The position numbers and the translations under genes are program-made. Shown one piece after another: positions 9,902 through 55,370 of a DNA stretch of 64,000 bases. Within the stretch, counting starts at the first letter, position 1; each line of letters begins with the position of its first letter. Below the pieces are notes generated by a model that did not search any database, was not told the origin of the DNA, and saw only the letters and a list, made by a program, of their open reading frames with translations. Source of the stretch: Nannocystis sp. (lineage in GTDB: Bacteria > Myxococcota_A > Polyangia > Nannocystales > Nannocystaceae); the NCBI RefSeq assembly GCF_016714285.1, contig NZ_JADJNN010000008.1:4669-68668 (forward strand), given 5' to 3'.

Positions 9902-12323
9902 GCACGACGGTGAGGCTGCTGAGGGCCATCGCCAGGGCGGCGAGGGCGGGGTGGAGCGCGCGCAGGAAGCCCGGGGCGGCGGCGATCGGGTAGAGGGCGC
10001 CGGCGGCCACCGGGATCAGGACGAGGTTGTAGATCGAGGCCCACAGCAGGTTCTGGCGGACCACGGCGAGGGTGCGGCGCGACAGCTCCAGGGCCTCGGG
10101 CAGGCCGCGGAGGTCGCTGCGCATGAGGGTGAGGTCGGCGGCGTGGATCGCGACCTCGGCGCCGCTGCCCATGGCGACGCCGAGGTCGGCCTGGGCCAGG
10201 GCGGGGCCGTCGTTGATGCCGTCGCCGACCATGCCGACCGGGCCGTCCCGCTGGAGCGTGACGATCGCGGCGGCCTTGTCGGCCGGGAGCACGCCGGCGA
10301 TCACGTCGGCGGCGGGGATGCCGGCCTGGGCGGCGATGGCGATGGCGACCTGGCGGTGGTCGCCGGTCAGCATGAGCACGCGCAGGCCGGCGCGGCGCAG
10401 GGTGGCGACGGCCTCGGCGGCCTCGGGGCGCAGGGCGTCGGCCAGGGCGAGCAGGCCGAGCAGGGCGCCGTCGCGGGCCAGCCAGACGAGGGTCTGCGGG
10501 GCCTGCAGGGCGGCGGCGGGGAGGGCGAGGAGGGCGGGTGTCGCTTGGGACAGGTGGGTGGCGGTGGCGGTGGATGTCCCGGCGGACAGGTCGGGTGTCG
10601 CTTGGGACAGGTGGGTGGCGGCTGTCCCGGGGGACAGGTTTGATGTCTCTTGGGACAGGTTGATCGTGGCGCTGGCGGTGGCTGTCCCGGCGGACAGGTC
10701 GGCGGCGAGGGCGGTGAGGGCGGTGGTGTCGACGTGGTTGCTGGTGAGCCAGCGTTCGCTGCCGATGAGGAGGTCGTGGCCGCCGACGCGGGTGCGCAGG
10801 CCGTGGCCGCCGACGGCGCGGAGGTTGTCGCTGGCGGGGAGTTCGAGGCCGGCGTCGCGGGCGGCGGTGACGATCGCGCGGGCGAGCGGGTGCTCGCTGC
10901 GCTGCTCGGCGGCGGCGGCGAGGCGGAGGAGCTCGCGCGGGTCGACGCCGGGGGCGGGCGCGAGGGCGCTGAGCGTGGGGCGGCCGCGGGTGAGGGTGCC
11001 GGTCTTGTCGAGGACGAGGGTGCGCAGGGCCTGGGCTCGCTCGAGCGCGGCCATGTTCTTGAACAGGACGCCGCGGCGGGCGGCGGCGCCGGTGCCGACG
11101 ACGATCGCGGTCGGGGTGGCGAGGCCGAGGGCGCAGGGGCAGGCGATCACGAGGACGGCGACGGCGCGCAGGAGGGCCGCGCCGGCGCCCTGGTCGGCGA
11201 GCAGCCACCACAGCGTGAAGGTGAGGCCGGCGAGGGCGAGGACGACGGGGACGAACACGGCGGCGACGCGGTCGACCAGGCGCTGCACGGGGGCCTTGCT
11301 GGCCTGGGCGGCGCGGACGAGGCGGACGATCTGGGCCAGGGCCGTGGCTGCGCCGACGCGGGTGGCCTCGATCTCGAGGGCGCCGTCGCCGTTGACGGTG
11401 GCGCCGGTGACGGGGTCGCCGGTGGTCTTGCCGACGGGGCGGCTCTCGCCGGTCAGCATGCTCTCGTCGACCTCGGAGGCGCCGCTGCGGACGACGCCGT
11501 CGACCGGGATCGCGGCGCCAGGGGCGACCAACACGGTGTCGCGGACCCGGACCTCTGCGGCGGGGATCTCGAGCTCGTGGCCGTCGCGGCGGACCCGGGC
11601 GGTGGCGGGGCGGAGCGCGAGCAGGGCCCGGATCGCGGCGCCGGCCTGGCCGCGGGCGCGGGTCTCGAGCAGGCGGCCGACGCCCACGAGGGTGATGATC
11701 GCGGCGGAGGTCTCGAAGTGGACGTGGTGGCCGAGAGCGTGGCTGCCGAGGGACTCGGCGACGACCACCGGGACGCTGGCGAGGAAGGCCACGCCGGCGC
11801 CGAGGCTGATCAGGACGTCCATGGTGGCGGCGCGGGCCTTGAGCGCGTGCCAGGCCCCGCGCAGGTGCGGCGCGCCGGTGTAGGCGAGGACCGGCAGGGC
11901 GAGCGCCAGCAGGAGCCACAGGAGCCACGGGGCGGCCGTCCAGGCGCCGAGCAGGTCGAAGTCGCGGCCCATACCGAGGACCATCAGCGGGGCGGTGCAG
12001 GCGATCCCGACGAGGACGCGGCGGCGCTGACTGGCGAGCTCGGCGGCGCGGGCCAGCAGCTCGGCATCGTCGCCGCCCTCGCTGCCCGCGATCACGCTGT
12101 AGCCGGCGGCCTCGACGGCGGCGACCAGCTCACCGCGAGTGACTGTGCCGGGGGTCGCCAGGTGCACGCGGGCGGTCTCACTGGCGAAGTTGACGGCGGC
12201 CGCGGCGACGCCGGGGACGCTGGTGAGCGCGCGTTCGACGGTGTTCGCACAGTTGGCGCAGCGCAGCCCGGCGATCGCCAGCTCGAACTCGGGGTCGTCG
12301 GCGGCGGGCACGGAGCCGAGCAT
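9852..12323 (-). CDS. heavy-metal-translocating P-type ATPase (CopA-like) with N-terminal HMA domain; carries an in-frame low-complexity insertion in the N-domain
   Basis: 823-aa ORF. CxxC metal-binding motif ([12 protein letters not shown]), CPC motif ([11 protein letters not shown]), DKTGTLT phosphorylation motif, [10 protein letters not shown] hinge. A 70-80 aa Ser/Thr/Ala-rich insertion (LSQET/LSAGT repeats) is encoded by the GGACAGGT repeat array at 10540-10720. Confidence 0.9.
10540..10720. repeat. intragenic array of GGGACAGGT / TGTCCCGGCGGACAGG repeat units inside the P-type ATPase gene
   Basis: Direct repeats of gtcgcttgggacaggtgggtggcgg (x2), tgtcccggcggacaggtcgg (x2) and related units read directly in sequence. 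Confidence 0.85.
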
Positions 12324-16943: not shown

Positions 16944-18362
16944 TCAGCCGCGCCGCATCAGCAGCAAGTACGCCGCGCCGGACACCAGGACCCCCGAGAA
17001 CCACGCCCCCTGGAACAGGAACAGCGCGCCAGGGATGAGCTTGCCGGCGAGGACGACGGCGACGCCGAGCAGCATCGCGGCGATGGCCTTGAGGTTAAAT
17101 CCACGGGTATAGCGATAGGGGCCGCGGCTGTCGTAGAGGCCGTCCAGGTCGAGCTGGGTGCGGCGCAATAGCCAATAGTCGGCGAGCAGGACGCCGCTGA
17201 CGGAGCCGAGCAGGCCGGAGTAGCTGACGAGCCAGCCGATGTACATATCGAGGACCAGCCAGGGGCAGAGCAGGACGCCGAGGACGGCGGCGATGAGGCC
17301 GCCGCTGCGGAACGAGACGCGGCGGGGGAAGGCGCTGGCGATCGAGTTGGCGGGGCCGACGACGTTGGCGGCGATGTTGGTGGACAAGGTGGCGACGGCG
17401 AGTGTGAACATTGCGACGAAGGCGAGCAGGGGGCTATCGGCGTCGTGGGCCAGGCGGACGACGAGGTCGACGGGGTTCCAGATCGCGTGGCCGTAGAGCA
17501 GGACGGTGGCGGAGGTGACGGCGACGCCGATGAAGCTAAACAGCAGCATGGTGGTCGGCAGGCCGTAGAGCTGGCCGAGCAGCTGCTCGCGCTGGTCCTT
17601 GCAATAGCGGGTGAAGTCGGGAATGTTGAGCGAGAGGGTGGCCCAGAAGCCGACCATGGCGGTGAGGCCGGGGAGGAACACGTGGATAAACCAGGACAGG
17701 CCGCTGTACTCGGATTCAGTGACGAGGCTCGCTGAATGGGCGAGGATCGTGCCGAGGCCGCCAGCGGCGCTGACGGCCCAGCCGAGCAGGGCGAGGCCGA
17801 CGACGATGAGGAAGGGGGCGGCGAAGTTCTCGAGCCATTTGATTGAGTCGGTGCCGCGCCACACGAACACGACGTTCATGAGCCAGAAGGCGACGAAGCA
17901 GATCCAGCTCGGGAGGGTCAGGCTGATGAAGGTCGCGCCGCCGCCGAGGGTGAGCCATCCGGGCCAGAGGATGCCGACCATGGCGGAGATGGCCTCGCCG
18001 CCGATGTACGTCTGGATGCCGAACCAGCCGCAGGCGACCAGGGCGCGGGCGAGGCTCGGGACGTGGGCCCCGAACACGCCGAAGGAGGCGCGGGCGAACA
18101 CGGGGAAGGGGACGCCGTAGCGGGTGCCGGCGTGGCCGCAGAGGATCATCGGCACCAGCACGACGAGGTTGCCGAGCAGGATCGCCAGCATGGCCTGCCA
18201 CCAATTCATGCCGCTGTCGACCAGCGAGGCGGCCATCATGTAAGTCGGGACGCACACGGCCATGCCGACCCACAGGGCGGCGAGGTGCCAGCGGTTCCAG
18301 GTCCGCTCGTCGGGGCGGGTGGGCGCGAGGTCGGGGTTGTGGAGGACCGGGTCGGTGGTCAT
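16944..18362 (-). CDS. NCS1-family nucleobase:cation symporter (cytosine/purine/uracil/allantoin permease family)
   Basis: 12-TM hydrophobic ORF with NCS1-like segments (WNRWHLAALWVGMAV..., GFNLKAIAAMLLG). Start taken at the second ATG (18362, MTTDPVLHNPDL...). The first (18437) lies in a tandem duplication of the 5' end. Confidence 0.85.
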   Translation of the reverse strand: MTTDPVLHNPDLAPTRPDERTWNRWHLAALWVGMAVCVPTYMMAASLVDSGMNWWQAMLAILLGNLVVLVPMILCGHAGTRYGVPFPVFARASFGVFGAHVPSLARALVACGWFGIQTYIGGEAISAMVGILWPGWLTLGGGATFISLTLPSWICFVAFWLMNVVFVWRGTDSIKWLENFAAPFLIVVGLALLGWAVSAAGGLGTILAHSASLVTESEYSGLSWFIHVFLPGLTAMVGFWATLSLNIPDFTRYCKDQREQLLGQLYGLPTTMLLFSFIGVAVTSATVLLYGHAIWNPVDLVVRLAHDADSPLLAFVAMFTLAVATLSTNIAANVVGPANSIASAFPRRVSFRSGGLIAAVLGVLLCPWLVLDMYIGWLVSYSGLLGSVSGVLLADYWLLRRTQLDLDGLYDSRGPYRYTRGFNLKAIAAMLLGVAVVLAGKLIPGALFLFQGAWFSGVLVSGAAYLLLMRRG

Positions 18363-18433
18363 TGGCGCGCTGCGCTCGTGGTGGAGGACCGGGTCGGTGG
18401 TCGGGCACGCTCGTGGTGGCGGACCGGGGATGG

Positions 18434-19174
18434 TCACGGGCAGTTCTGGACCGGGAGGTCAGTGACCTGCATCGGCTCGCTGGCGGGCACCCAGGGCATG
18501 TCTTGCGGGAAGTCGAGGGTGAGGTCGAGGTCGACTGTGTGCGGGCAGCCGAGCATCGGGTCGATGATGAAGTCGACGGTGCCAGCGCCGGCGATCGCGG
18601 CGACGCCCATGTTGCCAGGCATGCCGTCGAGGCAACCGGCGACGCCCTGGGTGATGTTGGCGTTCTGGGCGCCCCACTCGGCGGGGGCGACGATCTTGAG
18701 GTTGGGGTCGCCTTGCGTGGGGTGGGCGACGTGGAGCGTGGTGCAGCGATCGTTCACCACGTCGGCCTTGTGGATCAGGACGTGGTCGAGGCCGCCGGCG
18801 AAGAAGAAGGCGGCGTACTGGGCGTCGAGGTCGACGCCGGTGGTGGTGTCGGTGGTGCTGGTCGTGGTGCTGGTCTCACCGGTGGTGCTGGTCTCACCGG
18901 TGGTGGCGTCGCTGGTGGCGGCGTGGGTGGTGATGCTGGCGTGCGTAGTGGCGAGGCCAGTGTCGTGGCCGGTGTCGTGGCCGCTGTCGGTGGTGGTCGA
19001 CGGGGTGGTGTCGCTCGAGAGCGGGCTGGTCGGGACGTCGCCGGTGTCGTCGGGGGTCGTGGTGACGTCGGTGGCGCCGGCGGTGCTGCTGGTGCCGGCG
19101 GTCTCGCCGGTGCTGTCGGCCTTGTCGGGGCCGCAGGCGGCGAGGAGGGGCAGAACCAGGAGAAGGCGAGTCAT
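18434..19174 (-). CDS. hypothetical lipoprotein with Thr/Ser-rich linker
   Basis: MTRLLLVLPLLAACG (lipobox LAAC). T/S/D-rich low-complexity region, then a C-terminal globular domain ending in CP. Confidence 0.65.
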   Translation of the reverse strand: MTRLLLVLPLLAACGPDKADSTGETAGTSSTAGATDVTTTPDDTGDVPTSPLSSDTTPSTTTDSGHDTGHDTGLATTHASITTHAATSDATTGETSTTGETSTTTSTTDTTTGVDLDAQYAAFFFAGGLDHVLIHKADVVNDRCTTLHVAHPTQGDPNLKIVAPAEWGAQNANITQGVAGCLDGMPGNMGVAAIAGAGTVDFIIDPMLGCPHTVDLDLTLDFPQDMPWVPASEPMQVTDLPVQNCP

Positions 19175-19232
19175 GAGCCCGGGTGTACGCCGGGCGGCCG
19201 CGGGCTGTCCACGGGGCCGACGAAGCAGGACG

Positions 19233-19646
19233 TCAGGGGCACACGCAGCGGACCTTGTCGCCGCCGTTCGGGACCTTGCCGGTCTGGCCGCAGTCGAGGT
19301 CGTAGCGGGCGCCGGTACAGCGTTGGGCGCCCTTCCCGTCGGGGCTGCAGGCGGAGTACATCTCGACGCAGCCGTCGCCGAGGCCGGGGCGCGGGTGGAG
19401 GTCGCGGTGGCCGGCGAGCGGAGGGGGCGGGGCGGCGGGCGGTGGAGTTGGTGGGGTTTCGGCGAGCGGGGGTGGGGGTGTCGGAGGCGTCGGTGGGGTT
19501 TCGGCGATTGGGGGTGGTGGTGTCGGAGGCGTCGGTGGGGTGGGTGCGGTCGGGGTTGTCGGTGGCGTCGGGGCGGCGGGCTTGGTCGGCTCGGTCGGGG
19601 CGGTGCAGGCGAGGAGCAGGGCGCCGAGGAGGAGGAGGCGGTGCAT
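19233..19646 (-). CDS. Pro/Thr-rich lipoprotein with C-terminal Cys-rich domain
   Basis: Start ATG 19646 (MHRLLLLGALLLAC, lipobox LLAC). PTPPTPP repeats encoded by ~45-bp tandem repeats at 19440-19560. C-terminal domain with 6 Cys. The longer upstream ORF to 19991 is low-GC3 and was rejected. Confidence 0.55.
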   Translation of the reverse strand: MHRLLLLGALLLACTAPTEPTKPAAPTPPTTPTAPTPPTPPTPPPPIAETPPTPPTPPPPLAETPPTPPPAAPPPPLAGHRDLHPRPGLGDGCVEMYSACSPDGKGAQRCTGARYDLDCGQTGKVPNGGDKVRCVCP

Positions 19647-19649
19647 GGT

Positions 19650-20564
19650 GGGACGATAACCTGGGTGGGAGCGCGGGCGGTGGGGCACGGGCCGGGGTGG
19701 GGCCGGCCCTCCGGCGAGCGACGCCTCCGCTAAAGGCAAGGCGGTCGGCGTCGCCGAGAGCCGGCCCCACCCCGGCCCTGAATGGGGTGACGTCGCTGCG
19801 CGGTATGTAGCAGCGAATGCGACGGGTTGCACTCGATATGTCGCATTGCTGTGAGCCTCGAAGCGCTCACCGTTCAATGCACTCAAATGGGTCCGGGGCA
19901 GTCCTGCGGAGCGTCCGTGTCGGGCGCGCACATTGCTGTCGGGCCCATGTCGCCGCAACAATCGTCGTGGCTGCAGAGGATGCAACTCCATTCGAAGCAG
20001 GCCGTGATGCGTCCAATGTGAATGAGTTGTGGTCGCCGTGTGGCACCTTTCGTTCCTGTCCGAAGAGGCAGGTTGCGAGTCTCAGGCCGGGGCGGGCCTC
20101 GGCGACGCCGTGATGCATGCAATGTGAATGAGTTGTGGTCGCCGTGTGGCACCTTTCGTTCCTGTCCGAAGAGGCAGGTTACGAGTCTCAGGGCCGGGGC
20201 GGGTCCGGCCTCGGCGACGCCGATCGTACCGTCCTTTAGCGGAGGCTTCGCTTGCCGGGGGGCCGACGGGGGGGTCGACCGAGTCAAGGGGCGCCGTGGA
20301 GAACGAAGTTCTCCAAAGGCGAACCCGCCCTGTCTGAGGGCGAACCCCCCGTCGGACATCCGGCTTCTCGAGGATACGCGCGCGCCCGCCGGACCCGCCC
20401 CGGTCCGTGCCACGATACTCGCGGAGTCCTGCTGTGATAGCGAGGATACTCGCGGAGTCCTGCTGTGATAGCCCGGTCCGTGCCACGATACTCGCGGAGT
20501 CCTGCTGTGATAGGCCGGTCCGTGCCTTGATATTCGCGGACCTGCGATAGCGAGGGGTCGGCCT
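19650..20564. repeat. repeat-rich noncoding region: two ~105-bp direct repeats (20005-20109, 20110-20221), 3-4 tandem ~42/27-bp units (20399-20555), flanking inverted 14-bp repeat (cctccgctaaagg / cctttagcggagg at ~19727 and ~20243)
   Basis: Read directly. Locally lower GC, with no ORF showing credible codon bias. Confidence 0.8.
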
Positions 20565-20941
20565 TCAGGGCAGCTGGGCGCGGCGCAGGGCGGCGGCGGC
20601 GAGGGCGTCGAGCACGGGCTCGTCCATGCCGATCGCGCCGGGGCTCAGGTGGAGGGTCAGCTGCGGGTATGCGGCCTGGACGGCGGCGATGAGGGCGGGG
20701 ACGTCGCGCTTGATGTGTTTGCCGCCGGGGCTGAGGAACAGGGGGACGACGGCGATCGTGCGGTGGTCCGTGGCGAGCCTGGCGATCGCGGCGGCGAGGG
20801 TGGGCCCGTGCTCGAGGGTGGCGACGTGGACCGGCGTGGCGGGCTGAGCAGGCGCAGGCGAGCCGCGGTGCGCTCTGCCGGGGCGAGCCAGTCGGGGTCG
20901 GGGCTGCCGTGGGCGAGCAGGACGATCGCGTCGGCGATCAT
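20565..20941 (-). pseudogene. cbiX: sirohydrochlorin chelatase CbiX (small form), frame-disrupted near 20850-20870 (frameshift or sequencing error)
   Basis: N-terminus MIADAIVLLAHGSPDPDW in one frame (from ATG 20941). The rest of CbiX (ATPVHVATLEHGPTLAAAIARLATDHRTIAVVPLFLSPGGKHIKRDVPALIAA...) is in the +1 frame, ending at stop 20565-20567. Start overlaps the serA stop by ATGA. Confidence 0.6.
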
Positions 20942-25972: not shown

Positions 25973-26839
25973 GTGCGCCGCCTCGCCTGTCTCTGGCTCG
26001 CCTCCTCGCTGATCGCGGTGGGCGGGCCGGCGCGCCCGCTGCACGCGGCGCCGGTCAGCGAGCGCGCGGCCGATGTGCCGCTCGCGGTCGAGGGACCTGC
26101 GCCAAAGGACAGGTCGGGAGAGGCTGGCGCGGAGGACAGGTCGGCTGGCTCCGGGGACAGGTCGGGGTCAGCTGGCCCGGAGGACAGGTCGGGAGAGGCT
26201 GGCCCGGAGGACAGGTCGGGGTCGGCTGGCCCGGAGGACAGGTCGGCTGGCTCTGGGGACAGGTCGACGCCGCGGTCGGCGGCCGAGGGGATGCCCGCGG
26301 CGCCGCGGGTGCCGGCGCCGACGGCTGCGATCAAGGATGGGGGTCCAGAGCTGGTCACGGTGGCGGTCGGGCTCGGGCCCTCGGCGCCGGGCTCGAAGGC
26401 GGAGACGGCGGTGGTCGACGCGCTCGAGCGCGCCGCCCGGGCCTCGCAGGCGCCGCCGACGCTGGTTCGCCGCCTGCGGGCCGGGGCGGGCGAGGGGCGG
26501 GCGATCTGCCGCGAGCGTCGCGACGACCTGGTGCTGCTGCTCGAGTACATGCCCGATCGACCCGAGCCGGTGTTGGTGCCCCGGGACTGCCGCCTCGACC
26601 GTGAGCTGGCGCTCCGGGGGAAGGAGGCCGCAGGTGAGCCGGCCCTCATCGGCGTACTGTGGGAGGAACATCGGGCGCTCGTCCGCGGCGGGGCCCGCGA
26701 GCGCAAGGTGAGGATCAGCCGCAAGGTGAAGACGGGCCTCATCGCTGGCGGGGCGATCGTGGTCGTCGGGCTGGCGATCGTGCTGGTTGTGGTCAACAGC
26801 TTGCGCCGCGAGACGGTCGTGCTCACAGTGGGGCCATGA
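25973..26839 (+). CDS. secreted/membrane-anchored protein with (G/A)E(A/D)GPEDRSG tandem repeats
   Basis: GTG 25973. Signal peptide LACLWLASSLIAVG. Seven ~8-9-aa repeats encoded by the GAGGACAGGTCGG tandem array at 26095-26270. C-terminal TM helix. Stop overlaps the next ATG (ATGA). Confidence 0.6.
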   Translation: MRRLACLWLASSLIAVGGPARPLHAAPVSERAADVPLAVEGPAPKDRSGEAGAEDRSAGSGDRSGSAGPEDRSGEAGPEDRSGSAGPEDRSAGSGDRSTPRSAAEGMPAAPRVPAPTAAIKDGGPELVTVAVGLGPSAPGSKAETAVVDALERAARASQAPPTLVRRLRAGAGEGRAICRERRDDLVLLLEYMPDRPEPVLVPRDCRLDRELALRGKEAAGEPALIGVLWEEHRALVRGGARERKVRISRKVKTGLIAGGAIVVVGLAIVLVVVNSLRRETVVLTVGP

Positions 26840-28696: not shown

Positions 28697-29914
28697 ATGA
28701 TCGACCTACCCACCAACGCTCGCGCCGGCATGCTGAGCTCGTCGCCCACTCTGGCGATCTCCGCCCGTGCGGGCGAGCTGCGGGCGCAGGGCAAGGCGGT
28801 GCTCAACTTCAGCGCTGGCGAGCCCGACTTCCGCCCGCCGGCCGCGGTCACGGCGGCGCTCACCGAGTTCCTGGCCACGCGGCCGGTGCACTACACGCCG
28901 GTCGCGGGGATGCCCGAGCTGCGTGACGCGGCGGCGGCCGAGCTCGGTCGCTACCACGAGCGGCCGGTGCTGCGGAGCGAGCTGCTGGTGTCGTGCGGGG
29001 CGAAGCACAGCCTGGCCAACCTGTTCGCGGTGACGCTGGCGCCGGGCGACGAGGTCGTGATCCCGGCGCCGTATTGGGTCTCGTACGTGGACATGGTGAA
29101 GCTCGGGGACGGCGTGCCGGTGGTCGTGTCGACCCGGCGCGAGGACGGCTGGCGCCTGCAGCCGGACGATCTGGCGGCGGCCCTGACCCCGCGGACGCGC
29201 TTCGTCGTGATCGGCAACCCGACCAACCCGACGGGCGCCGGCTACAGCGCGGCCCAGCTGCGGGCGCTCGGCGAGGTGATGGCCCGGGTGGCGCCGCAGT
29301 GCTGGCTGCTGGTCGACGACATCTATCGTCGGCTGGTGTACGGCGACTTCGTGCACGCGAGCGCGTTCACGGCGCTGCGCGGGGTGACGGAGCAGATCGT
29401 GGTGATCGACGGGGTGTCCAAGAGCTTCGCGATGACGGGCTACCGCATCGGCTTCATGCTCGCGCCGGCGAAGGTGGTCGCGGCGGCGTCGCGGCTGCAG
29501 GGGCACGTCACCTCGGGCGCGGCGACAACCTCGCAGGTGGCGGCCCTCGCCGCGCTGCGCGACCCGAGCTGCGAGCCGGCGGTGCAGGCGATGCACGCCG
29601 CCTTCACGCGGCGCCGCGAGTTCATGCTCGCGGGGCTGCAGGCGCTGCCGGGGGTCGACACCTTCGCGCCGGACGGGGCCTTCTATTTGTTCGCGGACAT
29701 CTCGCGCCACCTCGGGCCGGGCACGCCCTTCGCGGACGATCTGGCGCTGGCGACCTGGTTGCTCGAGCAGAAGCTGGTGGCGACGGTGCCGGGCACGGCC
29801 TTCGGCACGCCCGGGTTCCTGCGCATCTCGTATGCGACCGACGACGAGAGTCTGCGGGCCGGGCTTGTGCGGATCGGCGAGGCGATCGGCGGGCTGGCGA
29901 CGGCGCGGGCCTGA
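28697..29914 (+). CDS. pyridoxal-phosphate-dependent aminotransferase, class I (aspartate aminotransferase-like)
   Basis: ATG 28697 (MIDLPTNARAGMLSSSPTL...); an alternative TTG at 28631 would overlap rsmD. Motifs NPTNPTG, SKSFAMTGYRIGF (Lys-PLP region) and GxAFG. Confidence 0.9.
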   Translation: MIDLPTNARAGMLSSSPTLAISARAGELRAQGKAVLNFSAGEPDFRPPAAVTAALTEFLATRPVHYTPVAGMPELRDAAAAELGRYHERPVLRSELLVSCGAKHSLANLFAVTLAPGDEVVIPAPYWVSYVDMVKLGDGVPVVVSTRREDGWRLQPDDLAAALTPRTRFVVIGNPTNPTGAGYSAAQLRALGEVMARVAPQCWLLVDDIYRRLVYGDFVHASAFTALRGVTEQIVVIDGVSKSFAMTGYRIGFMLAPAKVVAAASRLQGHVTSGAATTSQVAALAALRDPSCEPAVQAMHAAFTRRREFMLAGLQALPGVDTFAPDGAFYLFADISRHLGPGTPFADDLALATWLLEQKLVATVPGTAFGTPGFLRISYATDDESLRAGLVRIGEAIGGLATARA

Positions 29915-30006
29915 GGTCTCGTCGCGGCGCGGCGGAGCTCGTGCCGCTCGTCGGCGAGGCGATCGGCGGGCTGGCGACGGCGCGGGCCTGAGGTCTCGTC
30001 GCGGCG
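29874..30006. repeat. tandem duplication (~55 bp x2, 22-bp spacer) of the 3' end and stop of the aminotransferase gene
   Basis: GGCGAGGCGATCGGCGGGCTGGCGACGGCGCGGGCCTGAGGTCTCGTCGCGGCG occurs at 29874-29930 and 29953-30006. Confidence 0.85.
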
Positions 30007-30010
30007 AAGC

Positions 30011-31768
30011 TCAGACGCGGGCGTCGGTCTCGAACAGGCGCTCGAGCTCGTCGGCGGACTGCTTTGCGTGGGCGATCAGGGCCTGCTCGTTGTCGCGGAG
30101 GGTGAATTGCTCGGCGAGGACGCGCTCGTCCCAGCGGCGGAAGGCGAGGGTGAGCTCGTGGGCGTCGGCGCGGCCGAGCTCGGTGAGGGCCTGCTCGGCG
30201 AGCTCGAGGCTGGACACGAGTGTCTCGCGGATCACCGTGTCGGCGCCGGCGGCGACGAGCGCGTGGTTGTGCTGGCGGTTGCGGCTGCGGGCGAGGATCC
30301 GCAGCTGGGGGAAGTGCTGGCGCGCGTGCTGGACGATGTGGAGCGCGGCCTCGGTGTCGTCGACGGCGACGATCAGGAGGCGGGCCTTGTGGGCGCCGGC
30401 GGCGTGGAGCAGGTCGAGGCGGGCGGCGTCGCCGTAGAAGATCTTGCTGCCGTAGCGGCGCACGAAGTCGATCTGGGTCGGGCTGACCTCGAGCGCCGTG
30501 AAGCCGACGCGGGCCATGCGGAGCACGCGGGCGACGATCTGACCGAAGCGGCCGAAGCCGGCGATGATGACCCCGTGGGCCTCGTCGATGGTGTCGAAGG
30601 GGCGCGGATCTGCGGCTGTCTCTCGGGACAGACGGTCGCGCAGCAGGAAGAGCAGCGGGGTGGTGACCATCGACAGGGTGACGACCAGGATCAGCATGTC
30701 GGCGGTCGGGCGGTCGAACACGCCGGCCGCGATCGCGGCGCTGCAGACGACGAAGGCGAACTCACCGCCCTGGGACAGGGCGATAGCGAGGTCGAGGGCG
30801 CCGTGGCGCGGCAGCTTGAAGACCAGGCGGCCGAGCACGAGCACGGCGAGCAGCTTGACGGCGACCAGCGCGAGGACCAGGCCGGCGAGGGTGAGCGGCT
30901 GCTCGGCGAGCAGGCCGAGGCGGGCCGACATGCCGACGGCGACGAAGAAGAGGCCGAGCAGGAGGCCCTTGAAGGGGTCGATGTCGGCCTCTAGCTGGTG
31001 GCGGTAGGGCGAGTCGGCGAGCAGCACGCCGGCCAGGAAGGCGCCGAGGGCCATCGACAGGCCGACCTGTTCGACGAGGATGGCGGTGGCGAGGACGATG
31101 AGGAGGGCGAGCGCGGCGGAGAGCTCGCGGATGCGGGTGCCGGCGACGACGCGGAACAGCGGGCCGAGCAGGTAGCGGCCGGCGAACACGAGGCTGACGA
31201 TGACGCCGAGGGCGAGGCCGACCTGGGCGAGGCCGCTGCGGCCGGCGGCCTCGGCGGCGCGGGCCGTGCCGAGCAGGGGGAGGACGGCGAGGAGCGGGCT
31301 GGCGGCGACGTCCTGGAACAGGAGGATGCCGAACGCGGCGTGGCCGTGGGGCGTGGAGAGGCTGTGGCGGTCGGCGAGGATCTGCAGGACGATCGCGGTG
31401 GACGAGAGGGCGAGGGCGAGGCCGGTGACGATCGCGGCGCTCGGGGGCAGGCCGAGCAGCCAGACGATCGGCGCGAGCAGGACGGCGCTGACGGCCACCT
31501 GCAGGCCGCCGTACTCGAACACCTGGGCGCGCAGCTGCCACAGGCGGGCGGGCTGCAGCTCGAGGCCGACGAGGAACATGAGCAGGACGACGCCGAGCTC
31601 GGCGAAGTGGAGGGTGGAGTCGACCTCGTGGATGAAGCCGAAGCCGGAGGGGCCGATCGCCACGCCCGCGGCGAGGTAGCCGAGCACGGCGCCGAGGCCG
31701 AGGCGCTTGAACACCGGGACCGCGACGACGGCAGCGGCGAGGAAGATCGTGGCCTGGGCGAGCTGCAT
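30011..31768 (-). CDS. CPA2-family K+/H+ antiporter (KefB/KefC-like) with C-terminal RCK/TrkA-N domain
   Basis: ATG 31768 (MQLAQATIFLAAAVVAVPVFKRLGLGAVLGYLAAGV...). 12-13 TM helices, then a Rossmann RCK domain (GVIIAGFGRFGQIVARVL). The upstream extension in the ORF track lies in a tandem duplication. Confidence 0.9.
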   Translation of the reverse strand: MQLAQATIFLAAAVVAVPVFKRLGLGAVLGYLAAGVAIGPSGFGFIHEVDSTLHFAELGVVLLMFLVGLELQPARLWQLRAQVFEYGGLQVAVSAVLLAPIVWLLGLPPSAAIVTGLALALSSTAIVLQILADRHSLSTPHGHAAFGILLFQDVAASPLLAVLPLLGTARAAEAAGRSGLAQVGLALGVIVSLVFAGRYLLGPLFRVVAGTRIRELSAALALLIVLATAILVEQVGLSMALGAFLAGVLLADSPYRHQLEADIDPFKGLLLGLFFVAVGMSARLGLLAEQPLTLAGLVLALVAVKLLAVLVLGRLVFKLPRHGALDLAIALSQGGEFAFVVCSAAIAAGVFDRPTADMLILVVTLSMVTTPLLFLLRDRLSRETAADPRPFDTIDEAHGVIIAGFGRFGQIVARVLRMARVGFTALEVSPTQIDFVRRYGSKIFYGDAARLDLLHAAGAHKARLLIVAVDDTEAALHIVQHARQHFPQLRILARSRNRQHNHALVAAGADTVIRETLVSSLELAEQALTELGRADAHELTLAFRRWDERVLAEQFTLRDNEQALIAHAKQSADELERLFETDARV

Positions 31769-31870
31769 CCCGGCGGTGATGGTTACGCGAGCTCGCGGGC
31801 GGCGGCGAGGAAGATCGTGGCCTGGGCGAGCTGCATCCCGGCGGTGGTGATTACGCGAGCTCGGGGCGGG
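31737..31870. repeat. tandem duplication (~65 bp x2) of the ribosome-binding site, start codon and first ~10 codons of the kefB-like gene
   Basis: GAGGAAGATCGTGGCCTGGGCGAGCTGCATCCCGGCGGTG(A/G)TG(G/A)TTACGCGAGCTCG at ~31737-31800 and ~31808-31870. Confidence 0.85.
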
Positions 31871-32954
31871 CGCCGAGGACGGGGAGGCGGCGGACCGGCG
31901 CACGGGGGGAAGCGGCCGCTGCGGCGAGCTCGGGGCGCGGGGCGCCGCAGACGGAGCCCTCGAGGCCGAGCTGGGCGAGCATGTCGAGGTCGTCCTGGAC
32001 CGAGCGGTTGGGGGTGGTGAGGAAGTCGCCGATCATCATGCCGGAGGCGCCGGCGCTGAAGATGAGCGGCTGGAGCTGACCGAGGTGCTGGCGACCGGCG
32101 GCGATGAAGATGTTCTGGCGCGGGAGGGCGAGGCGGAAGCAGGCGATGATGCGCAGCATCTCGAGCGGCTGCAGCGGCTCGGAGCGGGCCAGGCGGGTGC
32201 CGTCGACGCTGACGAGGAAGTTGATCGGGACCTCGTCGACGTCGAGGGCGCGCAGGTCCATGGCCAGCTCGGCGCGGTGCTCGGGGCGCTCGCCCATGCC
32301 CATGATGCCGCCGACGCAGGTGCGCAGGCCGAGCTCCCTGGCGTGGCGGATGGTGGCGATGCGGTCGTCGTAGCTGTGGGTGGTGACGACCTCGCCGAAG
32401 TAGCCGCGGCCGGTCTCGAGGTTGTGGTTGAACTCGGTCATGCCGGCGTCCTTGAGCCGCTGCAGGCCGGCCTTGCTGACGAAGCCGAGCGAGGCGTGGG
32501 CCTCGGTGAAGCCGGCCTCACGCACGGCGCGGATGCCCTCGACCATGTGCTCGAGCGCGCGGGAGCCGTCTTCGTAGCCGCGGGTGGCGGTGACCAGGCC
32601 GAGCGCGCTGGCCCCCTGGGCCTGGGCGCGCAGGCTGGCGCTGACCATCTGATCGTGCGTGAGGAATTTTTCGGCGCTGACGCCAGTGTCGAAGTGCTTC
32701 GATTGGGCACAGAAGCCGCAGTCCTCGGGGCAGCCGCCCTGCTTGGCGTTGACGATCGAGCAGAGGTGGACGTGGTTGCCGAAGCGCCCGCGGCGGACGC
32801 GGTCGGCGGCGGCGATGAGCTCCCAGGTGTCGTGCTCACCGGCGAGGTAGCGGGTCAGGCTGGCAGCGTCGAGCGCGTCGAGCTCGCCAGCGAGGACGCG
32901 ATCGGCGATCGCGTGCGGGGCGGGGAGATCGAGGGGCCGCGCTTCATGCTGCAT
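31851..32954 (-). CDS. bioB: biotin synthase (radical SAM)
   Basis: CPEDCGFCAQ (CxxxCxxC) radical-SAM motif and YNHNLET motif. The 3' end runs into the duplicated kefB start region, so the last ~30 codons are uncertain. Confidence 0.9.
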   Translation of the reverse strand: MQHEARPLDLPAPHAIADRVLAGELDALDAASLTRYLAGEHDTWELIAAADRVRRGRFGNHVHLCSIVNAKQGGCPEDCGFCAQSKHFDTGVSAEKFLTHDQMVSASLRAQAQGASALGLVTATRGYEDGSRALEHMVEGIRAVREAGFTEAHASLGFVSKAGLQRLKDAGMTEFNHNLETGRGYFGEVVTTHSYDDRIATIRHARELGLRTCVGGIMGMGERPEHRAELAMDLRALDVDEVPINFLVSVDGTRLARSEPLQPLEMLRIIACFRLALPRQNIFIAAGRQHLGQLQPLIFSAGASGMMIGDFLTTPNRSVQDDLDMLAQLGLEGSVCGAPRPELAAAAASPRAPVRRLPVLGARPELA

Positions 32955-34260: not shown

Positions 34261-35241
34261 ATGGCCATCTTGCAGATCCGTCAAGCCATCCGCGACGCGA
34301 TGAAGGAGGAGATGCTCCGCGACGAGCGGGTGTTCCTCATGGGCGAGGAGGTCGGCCACTACAACGGGGCGTACAAGGCCAGCGAGGGGCTGCTCGAGCA
34401 GTTCGGGGCGCGGCGCGTGATCGACACGCCGATCGTCGAGACCGGCTTCGCCGGGGTCGGGATCGGGGCGGCGATGTGCGGGCTGCGGCCGATCATCGAG
34501 TTCATGACCTTCAACTTCTCGGCCGTGGCCTTCGACCAGATCTTGAACAACGCGGCCAAGATCCGGCACATGACGCACGGGCAGTTCGGGGTGCCGATCG
34601 TGTTCCGCGGGCCGAACGCAGCGGCGCACATGCTGGGTTCGACGCACAGCCAGGCATTCGAGCCGTTCTACGCGCACATCCCCGGGCTCAAGGTGGTCGC
34701 GGTGGCGACCCCCTACGACGCCAAGGGGCTGCTCAAGTCGGCGATCCGCGACGACAACCCGGTGGTCTTCCTCGAGGCCGAGCTGATGTACTCGGTGAAG
34801 GGCGAGGTGCCCGACGAGGAGTACACGATCCCGATCGGCAAGGCCGACATCAAGCGCGAGGGCAAGCACGTCACGCTGATCACCTGGGGGCAGGCGGTGC
34901 CGATCTCGCTGAAGACGGCCGAGCTGGCGGCGAAGGAGGGCATCGAGGTCGAGGTGATCGACCTGCGGACGCTGCGGCCGCTCGACACCGACGCGATCCT
35001 CGCCAGCGTGATGAAGACCAACCGCGCGGTGGTGCTGTTCCACGGCTGGCCCTACGGCGGGGTCGGCTGCGAGGTCATCGCCCGCATTCAGGAGCTGGCC
35101 TTCGACCACCTCGACGCGCCCGTGCTGCGCGAGTGCTACGAGGACGTGCCCTTCCCGTACGCCGAGAACCTCGAGCACCTGTGCCTGCCGACCCCCGAGA
35201 AGGGGCTCGCGGCGGTCAAAAAGGTGCTCTACAAGCGATAA
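34261..35241 (+). CDS. pdhB: pyruvate dehydrogenase E1 component beta subunit
   Basis: 326 aa. Transketolase-like pyrimidine-binding and C-terminal domains (MGEEVGHYNGAYK, FHGWPYGGVG). Confidence 0.9.
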   Translation: MAILQIRQAIRDAMKEEMLRDERVFLMGEEVGHYNGAYKASEGLLEQFGARRVIDTPIVETGFAGVGIGAAMCGLRPIIEFMTFNFSAVAFDQILNNAAKIRHMTHGQFGVPIVFRGPNAAAHMLGSTHSQAFEPFYAHIPGLKVVAVATPYDAKGLLKSAIRDDNPVVFLEAELMYSVKGEVPDEEYTIPIGKADIKREGKHVTLITWGQAVPISLKTAELAAKEGIEVEVIDLRTLRPLDTDAILASVMKTNRAVVLFHGWPYGGVGCEVIARIQELAFDHLDAPVLRECYEDVPFPYAENLEHLCLPTPEKGLAAVKKVLYKR

Positions 35242-35295
35242 CGGGCGATAACGGGCGATAACGGGCGATAGAAGCGACAGAAGGAAACAGACGCC

Positions 35296-37955: not shown

Positions 37956-38041
37956 CGGCGGGCCGTCACCGGGCACGATCGCTGATCGCCGACGCTGCCC
38001 CGAAGATCGGTGCTCGCGGATCGCCGAGCGGTGATCGGCGA

Positions 38042-46124: not shown

Positions 46125-48041
46125 TCACGCATCCTCCGCGGGGGCCTCGTTGGCGGCGGAGCTGTCCTCCGGGACAGCCGGACGCGTGCTGTCCTCCGGG
46201 ACAGCCGCGGACGCGTGCTCGGCGGAGCTGTCCTCCGGGACAGCCGCGGACGCGTGCTCGGCGGAGCTGTCCTCCGGGACAGCCGCGGACGCGTGCTCGG
46301 CGGAGCTGTCCTCCGGGACAGCCGCGCGCGCGCGCTCGACGACGCCGCGCTCCCACAGCTGCTCGTCGATCGCGCGCATGAGGGCCGCGGTGCTGCGGCG
46401 CTCGTTGGCGCTGATGAAGTAGGTGTGGCGGTCGGCGTCGGCGCGGCGGTGGTTGAGCTCGTCGGGGCCCAGGCGGTCGATCTTGTTGTAGACCCACAGG
46501 CGGGGCACGGCGCCGGCACCGATCTCGCCGAGGATCGCCTCGACGGTGGCGCGCTGCTGGTCCTGGTCGGGGTCGCTGGCGTCGACGACGACGAGCAGGA
46601 GGTCGGCCTCGGCGACCTCCTCGAGGGTGGCGGAGAAGGCCTGGACGAGCGCGGGGGGGAGGTCGCGGATGAAGCCGACGGTGTCGAGGAGGACGACCTC
46701 GTAGTCCTTGGGGAAGCGGATCCTGCGGACGCTGGGGTCGAGGGTGGCGAACAGCTTGTCCTCGGCGACGACGGCGCTGTCGGTGACGGTGTTGAGCAGG
46801 CTGCTCTTGCCGGCGTTGGTGTAGCCGACGATCGCGACCACGGGCACGCCGGTGCGCCGACGCAGGGCCCGACGCTGGTCGCGGCGCTGCTTGAGCGCGA
46901 GCAGGCGGCGCTCGAGGTCGTGGATGCGCTCCTTGGCGCGGCGGCGGTCGATCTCGAGTTTGGTCTCGCCGGGGCCGCGACCACCGATGCCGCCGGCGAG
47001 CCGCGACATGGCGGTGCCGTGGCCGATCATCCGCGGCAGGAGGTAGCGCAGCTGGGCCAGCTCGACCTGCAGCTTGCCGTCGGCCGAGGTGGCGTGCTGG
47101 GCGAAGATGTCGAGGATGAGGGTGGTGCGGTCGATGACCTTGAGGTCGGTGCGCTCGCCGATCTCGCGGGCCTGCGAGGGGGTGAGGTCGGGGTCGCAGA
47201 TCAGGAGCTCGACGTCCTGGGCGAGGGCCCGCACGAGCACGTCGCGCAGCTTGCCCTGGCCGAAGAAGGTGCGCGGGTCGGGGCCGGGGCGGCGCTGGGT
47301 GGCGAGGTCGACTAAGTGGAGGCCGTCGGTGCGGCACAGCTCGCGCAGCTCCTGCTCGCGGGCGTGCAGCTCGGGGCCCTCGCCCTGGTGGATCATGAGG
47401 GCCATGGCGCGGGTGCCCTGCGACTCGGCGCGCGCGCCCGCGGTGGCGGCGACGAGGCCGGCCTCGAGGTCGCGGATGAAGCCGAGGAAGTCGGAGGGCA
47501 TGTCCGCGGCGGGCCGCATGCCGGTGGTGTGGCCGGGGTCGTCGTCGTCGCGGGCGAGCACGCCGAGCGGGACGCGCGGGAAGCCGCGCACGACGAAGAT
47601 GTCCTTTGAGCCAGGTTGTGGCGGGGCCAGGCTGGCGAGGTCGATCTGGACGCCGGCGGGGCCGGTGTGGATCGCGGCGAGGAGGTCGAGGCGCAGCTTG
47701 GCGAGGTCGGCGAGCTCCTCGCGGGTCGGCGGGTCGGGGACCAGGTGGGTGAGGACCAGCCGGACGCCGCGCAGGCGGCCGCCCTGGCCGCGCACGCGGG
47801 TGAACTCCGGGAGGGCGAGGCTGTGGGCGTCGCCGAGGATGACGCGCTGCACGCGGCCGCGGCGGTCGATGAAGAGGCCGAGCTGGCGGTTGAGCTGGTG
47901 CGAGAGCTCGAGCAGGTCGCGCGCGAGCACGGCCGAGATGACGCTCGTCGGCGGGACCTGGCGCGCGCCGAGCCGCTGCAGCGCGCGGGCCTGGCTGCTC
48001 TTGAGGTTCGCCGTGTCGCCGTGGACGATCGGGTCGCTCAC
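46125..48041 (-). CDS. hflX: GTPase HflX with N-terminal extension and C-terminal AAVPEDSSAEHAS tandem-repeat tail
   Basis: GTG 48041 overlaps the stop of the upstream gene (GTGA). HflX N-domain and G-domain motifs (GYTNAGKSSLLN, DTVGF, NKID). Five C-terminal 13-aa repeats encoded by 39-bp tandem repeats at 46160-46326. Confidence 0.9.
   Translation of the reverse strand: MSDPIVHGDTANLKSSQARALQRLGARQVPPTSVISAVLARDLLELSHQLNRQLGLFIDRRGRVQRVILGDAHSLALPEFTRVRGQGGRLRGVRLVLTHLVPDPPTREELADLAKLRLDLLAAIHTGPAGVQIDLASLAPPQPGSKDIFVVRGFPRVPLGVLARDDDDPGHTTGMRPAADMPSDFLGFIRDLEAGLVAATAGARAESQGTRAMALMIHQGEGPELHAREQELRELCRTDGLHLVDLATQRRPGPDPRTFFGQGKLRDVLVRALAQDVELLICDPDLTPSQAREIGERTDLKVIDRTTLILDIFAQHATSADGKLQVELAQLRYLLPRMIGHGTAMSRLAGGIGGRGPGETKLEIDRRRAKERIHDLERRLLALKQRRDQRRALRRRTGVPVVAIVGYTNAGKSSLLNTVTDSAVVAEDKLFATLDPSVRRIRFPKDYEVVLLDTVGFIRDLPPALVQAFSATLEEVAEADLLLVVVDASDPDQDQQRATVEAILGEIGAGAVPRLWVYNKIDRLGPDELNHRRADADRHTYFISANERRSTAALMRAIDEQLWERGVVERARAAVPEDSSAEHASAAVPEDSSAEHASAAVPEDSSAEHASAAVPEDSTRPAVPEDSSAANEAPAEDA
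46160..46326. repeat. five tandem ~39-bp repeats each containing the perfect palindrome GCTGTCC-TCCG-GGACAGC, inside the 3' end of hflX
   Basis: Read directly (gagctgtcctccgggacagccgcggacgcgtgctcggcg x5). Confidence 0.9.
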
Positions 48042-50466: not shown

Positions 50467-51792
50467 ATGGGCGTGCGTCATTGGTCGGTGTTGGTGTCCC
50501 TCACGGTGGGCAGCGCGGGGCTGCTGGTGGCGCATCCGTTGCTCGCTGCGCCGCAGCTCAAGAAGACGACGCCGCAGGTCGCAGTGCAGCCCGCGCGCAA
50601 GCTGGAACCGGCGCCGGGGACCGGGGGCGGGCGCTTCGTCACGTTGCCGCAAGCGGGCGGCCCGGTGGTGCGAGACAACCAGACCGGGCGCATGTGGCTG
50701 CGGGCGCCGGCGACCAGCAAGTACGGGTTCGCGGCGGCGAAGGCCGCGTGCGATGCGAAGGTTGTCGGGGGCCACGACGACTGGCGGCTGCCTCGCATCG
50801 AGGAGCTCAAGGGTTTGCTGTCCGGACCGGTGGAGGCGCCGCTGCCGGCGGGGCACCCGTTCACCGTGACCGGGACGTACTGGTCGTCGACCGAGACCTC
50901 GGACACAGGGGCGCTGCAGATCCTGGTCTTCAACGGCAACATGTTCCACGACATGAAGACCAGCGAGCTCGGGGCGTGGTGCGTGCGCGGCGGGGGCGAC
51001 ACCTCGTACCCGAACAGCAACCCGCGCTTCCACGTGATCGGGGCGGATGTCGAGGACGCGCAGACAGGGCGGCTGTGGAAGCGGCAGCCGACCGGGATCG
51101 GTGGCTGGCACGCGGCCCGGATCGAGTGCCGGGCGCACGGGGCGGGCTGGCGGCTGCCGACGATCGCCGAGCTGACGGGGCTGCTCGACATGAACGCGGC
51201 GGAGACCAAGCTACCGGCGGGGCACCCGTTCCTCAACGCGTGGGCGCCCTATGATCAGCGGCAGATGTGGTCGAACGACTCGAGCAGCATCAGCGCCGCG
51301 GCGACGCTGCGCTTCGCGGACGGCGTGGTCGGCGGGGCCGACAAGGCGGCGTCCGACGGGATGAGTCGCTGCATCAAGATGGACCTCGGCGCGGCCTGGC
51401 CGGTCGGTCCGGTGGGTCGCTTCGCGCTGCGCCTCGGCGACGCGGCGGTGCTCGACCAGGAGACGCGGCTGCTGTGGGAGCGCGCGCCGGCGGCGAGCGG
51501 CGTGCAGTACCCCGACGCGGCGGCGGCGTGCGCGGGCAAGTCGATCGCCGGGGTCGGCGGGTGGCGGCTGCCGACGCTCGTCGAGATCACGACGCTGATC
51601 GACTACAACATCTCGAGCGGGGCCAAGCTGCCGGCGGGGCACCCCTTCGTCGGCATCGTCACGGGCGACTACTGGACGACCACGCCGCACACCTCGGACA
51701 TGAAGACGCTGGACCTCGGCAACGGGCTGCCGGGGCACATGTCGCAGATGGGCGGGCACCTCTACGGCTGGTGCGTGCGCGCCGAGCCGTGA
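50467..51792 (+). CDS. secreted protein with three DUF1566 (Lcl C-terminal-like) repeats
   Basis: ATG 50467, signal peptide. Three repeats of the pattern WRLP(T/R)I(E/A)EL..L.......LP.GHPF....YW(S/T)(S/T)T. Recognised from memory of PF07603. Confidence 0.7.
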   Translation: MGVRHWSVLVSLTVGSAGLLVAHPLLAAPQLKKTTPQVAVQPARKLEPAPGTGGGRFVTLPQAGGPVVRDNQTGRMWLRAPATSKYGFAAAKAACDAKVVGGHDDWRLPRIEELKGLLSGPVEAPLPAGHPFTVTGTYWSSTETSDTGALQILVFNGNMFHDMKTSELGAWCVRGGGDTSYPNSNPRFHVIGADVEDAQTGRLWKRQPTGIGGWHAARIECRAHGAGWRLPTIAELTGLLDMNAAETKLPAGHPFLNAWAPYDQRQMWSNDSSSISAAATLRFADGVVGGADKAASDGMSRCIKMDLGAAWPVGPVGRFALRLGDAAVLDQETRLLWERAPAASGVQYPDAAAACAGKSIAGVGGWRLPTLVEITTLIDYNISSGAKLPAGHPFVGIVTGDYWTTTPHTSDMKTLDLGNGLPGHMSQMGGHLYGWCVRAEP

Positions 51793-51857
51793 CGGCTGGT
51801 GCGTGCGCGCCGGGCCGTGGTGTGCGCGCCGAGCCGTGACGGTCCTTGTGCGGGGGC

Positions 51858-55017: not shown

Positions 55018-55289
<272 letters not shown>

Positions 55290-55305
<16 letters not shown>

Positions 55306-55370
55306 GGCTGTCCGAGGGGACAGGTTGCGGCCGGCGTACTTGATGTGAGGCTGTCCGAGCGGACAGGTCA
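55290..55370. repeat. two direct copies of TGATGTGAGGCTGTCCGAG(G/C)GGACAGGT, each with a CTGTCC-N4-GGACAG palindrome, between convergent genes whose stop codons lie in or next to the copies
   Basis: Read directly. Candidate bidirectional terminator or repeat element. Confidence 0.8.

Follow-up and report, generated by a model that had tools for sequence, protein, structure and literature searches.

The gene kefB in a 64-kb stretch of Nannocystis sp. DNA (positions 4,669 to 68,668 of contig NZ_JADJNN010000008.1, assembly GCF_016714285.1; hereafter, the window) is bordered at both of its ends by short direct repeats built from pieces of the adjoining genes. We consider it probable that these repeats represent two independent, lineage-specific small local duplications, generated by replication slippage or template switching in a duplication-rich Nannocystis species. 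The window has a G+C content of 73.8%. kefB is located on its minus strand at 30011-31768 (start codon ATG 31768-31766, stop codon 30013-30011) and codes for a kefB/kefC-type CPA2 K+/H+ antiporter of 585 amino acids (aa), whose sequence is identical to that of P0001, a 'CPA2 family protein [Nannocystis sp.]'. It is followed by a convergent class I/II aminotransferase gene (28697-29914, plus strand, 405 aa) and preceded by the co-directional biotin synthase gene bioB (31851-32954, minus strand, 367 aa). A preliminary description of this DNA had spoken of an aminotransferase, a kefB-like antiporter and bioB, and these identities were confirmed by Pfam (Aminotran_1_2, E=1.8e-66, for the aminotransferase; Na_H_Exchanger, E=1.1e-63, and TrkA_N, E=7e-25, for KefB; Radical_SAM and BATS for BioB).

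Upstream of kefB, the gene start is indeed duplicated in tandem, as first described. The repeat is an abutting head-to-tail duplication of 68 bp (31730-31797 and 31798-31865) with 64 of 68 positions identical (94%), and Tandem Repeats Finder (TRF) detected it with a period of 68, 2.2 copies and a score of 254. Each copy consists of the last 4-5 codons of bioB, TAA, a 14-nucleotide (nt) spacer, ATG and 12-13 codons of kefB. In the kefB-proximal copy (31730-31797, minus strand), the functional kefB start is preceded by the spacer and by a relic bioB end (RELA and TAA 31785-31783), and in the kefB-distal copy (31798-31865, minus strand) the functional bioB end (PELA and TAA 31853-31851) is followed by the spacer and by a relic kefB start (ATG 31836-31834). 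An extension or overlap of the bioB 3' end by the duplication, proposed earlier, was not found: bioB stops at the distal TAA, and its C-terminus is intact and the same as in its relatives. The second potential translation start was a partly correct observation. The distal ATG exists, but with a repeat period of 68 it cannot be in frame with kefB, and it opens only a 17-codon upstream open reading frame (ORF; 31783-31836, minus strand; by translation, MQLAQATIFLAAARELA), which terminates at the relic bioB TAA. Gaps of 14 nt separate this ORF from the bioB stop on one side and from the kefB start on the other, so that it overlaps neither of the co-directional genes. The kefB start at 31768, in the proximal copy, is in register with every relative aligned.

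Downstream of kefB, 56 nt recur exactly in direct orientation (29874-29929 and 29951-30006, plus strand) at a start-to-start distance of 77. The end of the aminotransferase gene is thus truly duplicated, although the second copy begins at 29951 and not, as initially placed, at 29953, and the two copies are not strictly abutting. Copy 1 (29874-29929) is functional and contains about 13 last codons of the aminotransferase gene, its true 3' end with TGA (29912-29914) and 15 further nt. The 405-aa gene is also called in four of the relatives described below (L075, L134, L135 and L139), and its C-terminus agrees with theirs. Copy 2 (29951-30006) is a non-coding relic, 100% identical to copy 1 and with a relic TGA at 29989-29991, which sits between the two convergent stop codons and finishes 4 nt short of the kefB stop. 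The repeat is only loosely head-to-tail because a 21-nt unmatched filler (29930-29950) separates the copies. No other match to this filler was found in the window on either strand with up to 3 mismatches. Part of it resembles the kefB-stop/spacer sequence (GAGCTCCGCCGCG versus GAGCTTCGCCGCG) with a 5-nt CGCCG micro-duplication, and about 10 nt are unaccounted for. A leftward extension of the repeat (GGGCTTGTGC versus GAGCTCGTGC, offset 74) was too weak to count. The enlarged convergent spacer showed no terminator-like site. Its RNA structure was also considered as a sign of function and rejected: the plus strand gave -73 kcal/mol but with z=-2.3 and a fold that leans on G-U pairs, and the minus strand (z=+1.3) was no better than shuffles.

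To place these repeats among relatives, we compared the window with four sets of sequences. The closest was the assembly GCA_016717175.1 (L075; contig JADKFZ010000004.1, 915 kb), a second long-read metagenome-assembled genome (MAG) that was reached via a look-up of the bioB protein, which is identical in the two. Six contigs from wastewater metagenomes were reached via KefB proteins at 97-98% identity (L134 and L135, assembled with MEGAHIT; L136, the same as L076, and L138, from JGI; L137, SPAdes; and L139, GenBank). The aa identity of KefB is 86-87% in three unduplicated congeners (L001, which is a Nannocystis sp. MAG, L140 and L142) and 76% and 69% in two deeper relatives (L077 and L078, respectively).

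Both duplications occur in identical form in the window and in L075 (99.4% nt identity). The six wastewater contigs, with kefB at ~97% nt identity, have only the upstream duplication; in all of them the downstream junction is single-copy, and the convergent stops are 14 nt apart. The three congeners, with kefB at ~89.5% nt identity, have neither, being single-copy at both sites with unchanged gene order, and in the two deeper relatives bioB and kefB are adjacent and unduplicated. In other words, the upstream distal copy is present in L075 and L134-L139 and absent from L001, L140, L142, L077 and L078, and the downstream copy 2 is present in L075 and absent from L134-L139, L001, L140 and L142; where copy 2 is missing (L134-L139 and L001), so is the filler. 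The repeats are not conserved sequence shared identically by all relatives, which had been named beforehand as a refuting outcome. The upstream event postdates the separation from the ~89.5% congeners and predates the divergence of the two ~97% clades, and the downstream event, restricted to the window's clade, falls between the ~97% split and the 99.4% split. The nested distribution agrees with the identity between copies (94% upstream and 100% downstream) in making the upstream duplication the older of the two.

The preliminary description had also called for a synteny comparison. The order pdhA-bioB-kefB-aminotransferase-methyltransferase is kept in L001, L140 and L142, with all four genes at ~82-90% nt identity and with plain junctions (14-15 nt between bioB and kefB, and 14-25 nt between kefB and the aminotransferase gene). 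kefB thus lies between bioB and the aminotransferase gene in these congeners, and bioB-kefB adjacency was observed in all Nannocystis-like relatives examined. As a separate observation, the kefB-aminotransferase spacer of L001 (7760-7790) has a small direct repeat of its own (GTCCAGGCC AC GTCCAGGCC); therefore, the convergent spacer has been remodelled by micro-duplication in other lineages too.

Small duplications are in excess in the window as a whole. The same thresholds for near-tandem repeats (copies of at least 30 nt, period 25-400) were applied to all sequences and gave 13 clusters in the 64-kb window versus 8 in 1.17 Mb of the other fetched loci (~0.07 per 10 kb). Other loci with at least 70% G+C had 5 clusters in 66 kb. 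In the orthologous 14-22 kb of the congeners, L140 and L142 (18-22 kb) had no cluster and L001 had one, and the window clade had four in the same 13 kb. Within the window, near-tandem repeats cover 13% of non-coding versus 5% of coding bases.

Short tandem duplications and minisatellite or variable-number tandem repeat (VNTR) loci in bacteria are made by slipped-strand mispairing or unequal recombination. The repeats around kefB are similar to such loci in having local head-to-tail copies, periods of tens of bases, microhomology at a breakpoint, strain-variable presence and enrichment of their kind in non-coding DNA, and, as in VNTR loci, the ancestral state in outgroups is single-copy with presence/absence variation in close relatives. 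They differ in that there are two copies per site, in that stop and start regions of the adjoining genes, and not a dedicated repeat, serve as the units, and in the 21-nt non-templated or scrambled junction of the downstream case. Both upstream breakpoints lie directly 3' of CCGCC in GCC-rich runs (GGCGCCCGCC/CCGAG in bioB and CTCGCCGCCGCC/GTCGTC in kefB, with the slash at the breakpoint). Such microhomology would be the usual signature of slipped-strand mispairing or unequal exchange, and it is the reason why TRF counts slightly more than two copies. Thus, the early suggestion of a slippage-type local duplication gains support from repeats that are strictly local, absent from the sister species, nested by age and, upstream, associated with microhomology.

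The course of events may be envisaged as follows. Slippage or template switching between short GC-rich microhomologies would make each duplication. The older, 68-bp event copied the bioB-stop/spacer/kefB-start junction, leaving the 17-codon ORF as a by-product, and the younger, 77-bp event, composed of the 56-nt copy and a 21-nt scrambled junction, enlarged the spacer between the convergent stops of the aminotransferase gene and kefB, which went from about 19 nt to 96 nt. When a duplication spans a gene boundary, each gene end would remain intact in one copy, next to a harmless relic, and the duplication would thus survive, whereas duplications within genes would be purged by selection. Both events were presumably neutral.

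Several observations, however, weigh against this simple scenario. First, the downstream event departs from a clean tandem duplication: no template could be assigned to its 21-nt junction, and the breakpoint is too scrambled for its homology to be read. Because of this junction, simple one-step slippage is not sufficient for the downstream event; serial template switching would fit. Second, no difference is seen among the four upstream copies (two per clade in two clades) over the first 36 nt (12 codons) of the relic kefB start, whereas the 14-nt spacers differ at 2-5 positions. An invariant relic start next to diverged spacers could reflect gene conversion or selection on the upstream ORF, and not pure neutrality. 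Third, the excess of near-tandem clusters rests on one 64-kb window compared with heterogeneous loci, mostly from short-read assemblies.

It might be argued that the upstream duplication was kept because the 17-codon ORF is useful, for example, as a translational relay or buffer handing ribosomes over from bioB to kefB, or as a means of tuning kefB translation, in a manner similar to the coupled small ORFs of mycobacterial interspersed repetitive units (MIRUs). Both clades retain an uninterrupted ORF (in the sister clade, MQLAQATIFLAAGRELA) that lies 14 nt from either neighbor, and its first 12 codons have stayed the same while the adjacent spacers diverged. In addition, there is a natural precedent in MIRUs, which are intergenic repeats in operons with a small ORF coupled to the downstream gene (PMC12548453, a review). 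We nevertheless regard such a function as unlikely. The ORF has been found in only two lineages that are ~3% apart, and because of this, 54 intact nt are expected by default. In the real kefB start, these 36 nt hardly vary among relatives down to 86% identity. Moreover, at one spacer position the window clade has A and the other clade G, in each case in both copies, and this clade-specific state hints at gene conversion between the copies. Together, the near-invariant real start and gene conversion may therefore explain the identity of the copies without selection on the upstream ORF. The congeners manage with a plain bioB-kefB spacer. We also searched 29500-32300 for signals: no sigma-70-type promoter-like site was detected, and neither of the two terminator-like hits lies inside the duplicated junctions. 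With regard to a putative regulatory leader peptide or attenuator, the ORF is intact in the two clades sampled, and the junction contains neither promoter-like nor terminator-like sites.

The comparison with MIRUs is also limited by their organization. The upstream unit resembles them as a 40-100-nt element between co-directional genes, with a small ORF close to the preceding stop codon and to the start codon that follows. However, MIRUs are a dispersed, apparently mobile family present at many loci and are coupled at -4 nt (PMC12548453), whereas the present unit copies its own junction a single time and has 14-nt gaps. Searches with blastn-short found no further copy of either repeat unit in the 64-kb window, and within it neither unit therefore behaves as a dispersed family. 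The repeats are ordinary local duplications of a known kind. In the literature, we found nothing specific on a 'gene-terminus duplication' phenomenon or on tandem repeats in Nannocystis.

That one or both repeats are assembly or polishing artefacts of a MAG, another explanation offered in the preliminary description, appears very improbable. Chance is excluded for both repeats, as neither an exact 56-mer nor a 64/68 match at such spacings is expected in 64 kb. An artefact would be most conceivable downstream, where the copies are 100% identical and the repeat has been seen so far only in the window and L075, both apparently long MAG contigs (418 kb and 915 kb). Look-ups with the exact KefB and aminotransferase proteins of the window yielded no contig, and thus no short-read contig of its clade. 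However, L075 contains both duplications letter for letter, including the odd 21-nt filler, and over 13.1 kb it differs from the window by 62 scattered substitutions and 12 indels; the two assemblies therefore represent different populations and read sets. The downstream repeat is also not the exact, abutting repeat of k-mer length that is expected of an unmerged contig overlap. For the upstream repeat the artefact is refuted: all six wastewater contigs, short-read assemblies made independently from different metagenomes with different assemblers, carry the 68-bp duplication with a few substitutions relative to the window. Judged from these assemblies, both repeats are genuine sequence and should not be 'corrected'.

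The remaining possibility, that both repeats are footprints of a single rearrangement that placed kefB here (by insertion, by inversion or by allelic replacement via illegitimate recombination at both ends), draws on geometry alone, one repeat per gene end, and can be practically dismissed: the same gene order occurs without repeats in L001, L140 and L142, bioB-kefB adjacency extends down to 69% KefB identity, the repeats differ in age and distribution and have no sequence in common, and their borders lack an integrase, a transposase or an inverted repeat. Horizontal or allelic replacement of kefB was considered separately and rejected. At the three depths, the nt identity of kefB (99.3, 97.0 and 89.5%) is matched by that of the aminotransferase gene (99.3, 97.7 and 89.0%) and bioB (99.5, 97.2 and 90.1%), and divergence equal to that of the flanks argues against such replacement. 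The repeats also recall the duplications of gene 3' ends at attL/attR of integrative elements, in which the last codons and stop likewise occur twice in direct orientation. Here, however, only 21 nt lie between the copies, there is neither an integrase nor an inserted element, and the gene order of relatives is unchanged. Similarly, att sites and target-site duplications are not indicated: the repeats are unrelated to each other, each is confined to a local doublet, a recombinase ORF is lacking, and kefB is in place without repeats in relatives. Thus, kefB has not moved, and the insertion or inversion suggested earlier is refuted.

Two small local duplications remain the preferred explanation, and their position on both sides of one gene can be considered in the light of other gene ends. 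Three further genes have a stop or start codon inside a near-tandem repeat: pdhB and the two genes that end at 51792 and 55305. At the end of pdhB (35235-35270), the last codon and TAA (GCGATAACGG) are repeated 3.6 times and make up most of the pdhB-E2 spacer. This repeat is specific to the window clade; L075 has the same, whereas in L140, L142 and L001 the spacer is similar in length (50 nt) but unrelated in sequence. The last ~28 nt and TGA of the gene at 50467-51792 are present in ~2.7 copies (51764-51840) before a convergent gene, and at the end of the gene at 55018-55305, TGA and a TGTCC…GGACA hairpin are repeated with a period of 43 (55298-55370). In addition, a stop/start junction between two co-directional genes appears to be triplicated at 18322-18437 (minus strand) with a period of ~42 and ~82% identity; this triplication offers alternative starts for the downstream gene (ATG 18363 or GTG 18437). 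The preliminary description had proposed a genome-wide look for similar terminus duplications, and at least three other gene ends carry them, all found within the 64-kb window.

In total, terminus duplications mark ~5-6 of the window's ~53 gene junctions. With five or six marked junctions, the chance of at least one adjacent pair, calculated as 1 - C(49,5)/C(53,5) and 1 - C(48,6)/C(53,6), is 0.34-0.47. The flanking of kefB by two duplications is therefore unremarkable, and the hint that two duplications bracketing one gene are meaningful finds no support; that both adjoin kefB is a coincidence. An apparent lineage-wide excess of gene-terminus duplications is left as a point of only mild note. 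It is conceivable, and we put this forward tentatively, that the species (the window clade together with the ~97% clade) has a heritably raised rate of 10-110-bp tandem duplication, by which spacers are rebuilt from copies of gene ends.

Other repeats were observed in the window. The palindrome TGTCC-N3-6-GGACA occurs 18 times, whereas 0.17 are expected from shuffles (e.g., 10575-10696, 46163-46320, 55309-55365, 57081 and 58433); it is often found within tandem arrays at gene ends and looks like a dispersed hairpin family similar to repetitive extragenic palindromic (REP) elements. A large intergenic region at ~19175-20625 (noted 19412-20540) has a lower G+C content and stacked duplications, among them a 106-bp unit present 1.9 times (20001-20203; 95%) and 31-bp and 42-bp repeats (20414-20540), with no Rfam match. 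Over the whole window, Rfam detected two tRNAs only, far from the kefB region. A degenerate 27/48/54-bp array within a predicted gene (26106-26284 in the window, 12698-12845 in L075) has a 5-nt indel (TGTCC) between the two MAGs that are otherwise 99.4% identical, and a cluster of small indels is present at 37962-38002 of the window. The indels at these two sites reflect either repeat instability or errors in long-read consensus.

For gene calling, our data indicate that the start of kefB should be set at the proximal ATG (31768) and the stop of the aminotransferase gene at the first TGA (29914). If the duplication rate is raised in this species, relic stops, relic starts and small upstream ORFs would be found at many junctions, the flanks of kefB would be two samples of a genome-wide process, and the cause may lie, for example, in the set of replication or repair genes. 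In a compact genome with 74% G+C, duplications that straddle gene boundaries are a visible route by which spacers and small upstream ORFs arise, and this lineage displays several stages of it, from doublets that are 100% and 94% identical to a spacer whose entire sequence has given way to copies of a stop-codon 10-mer.

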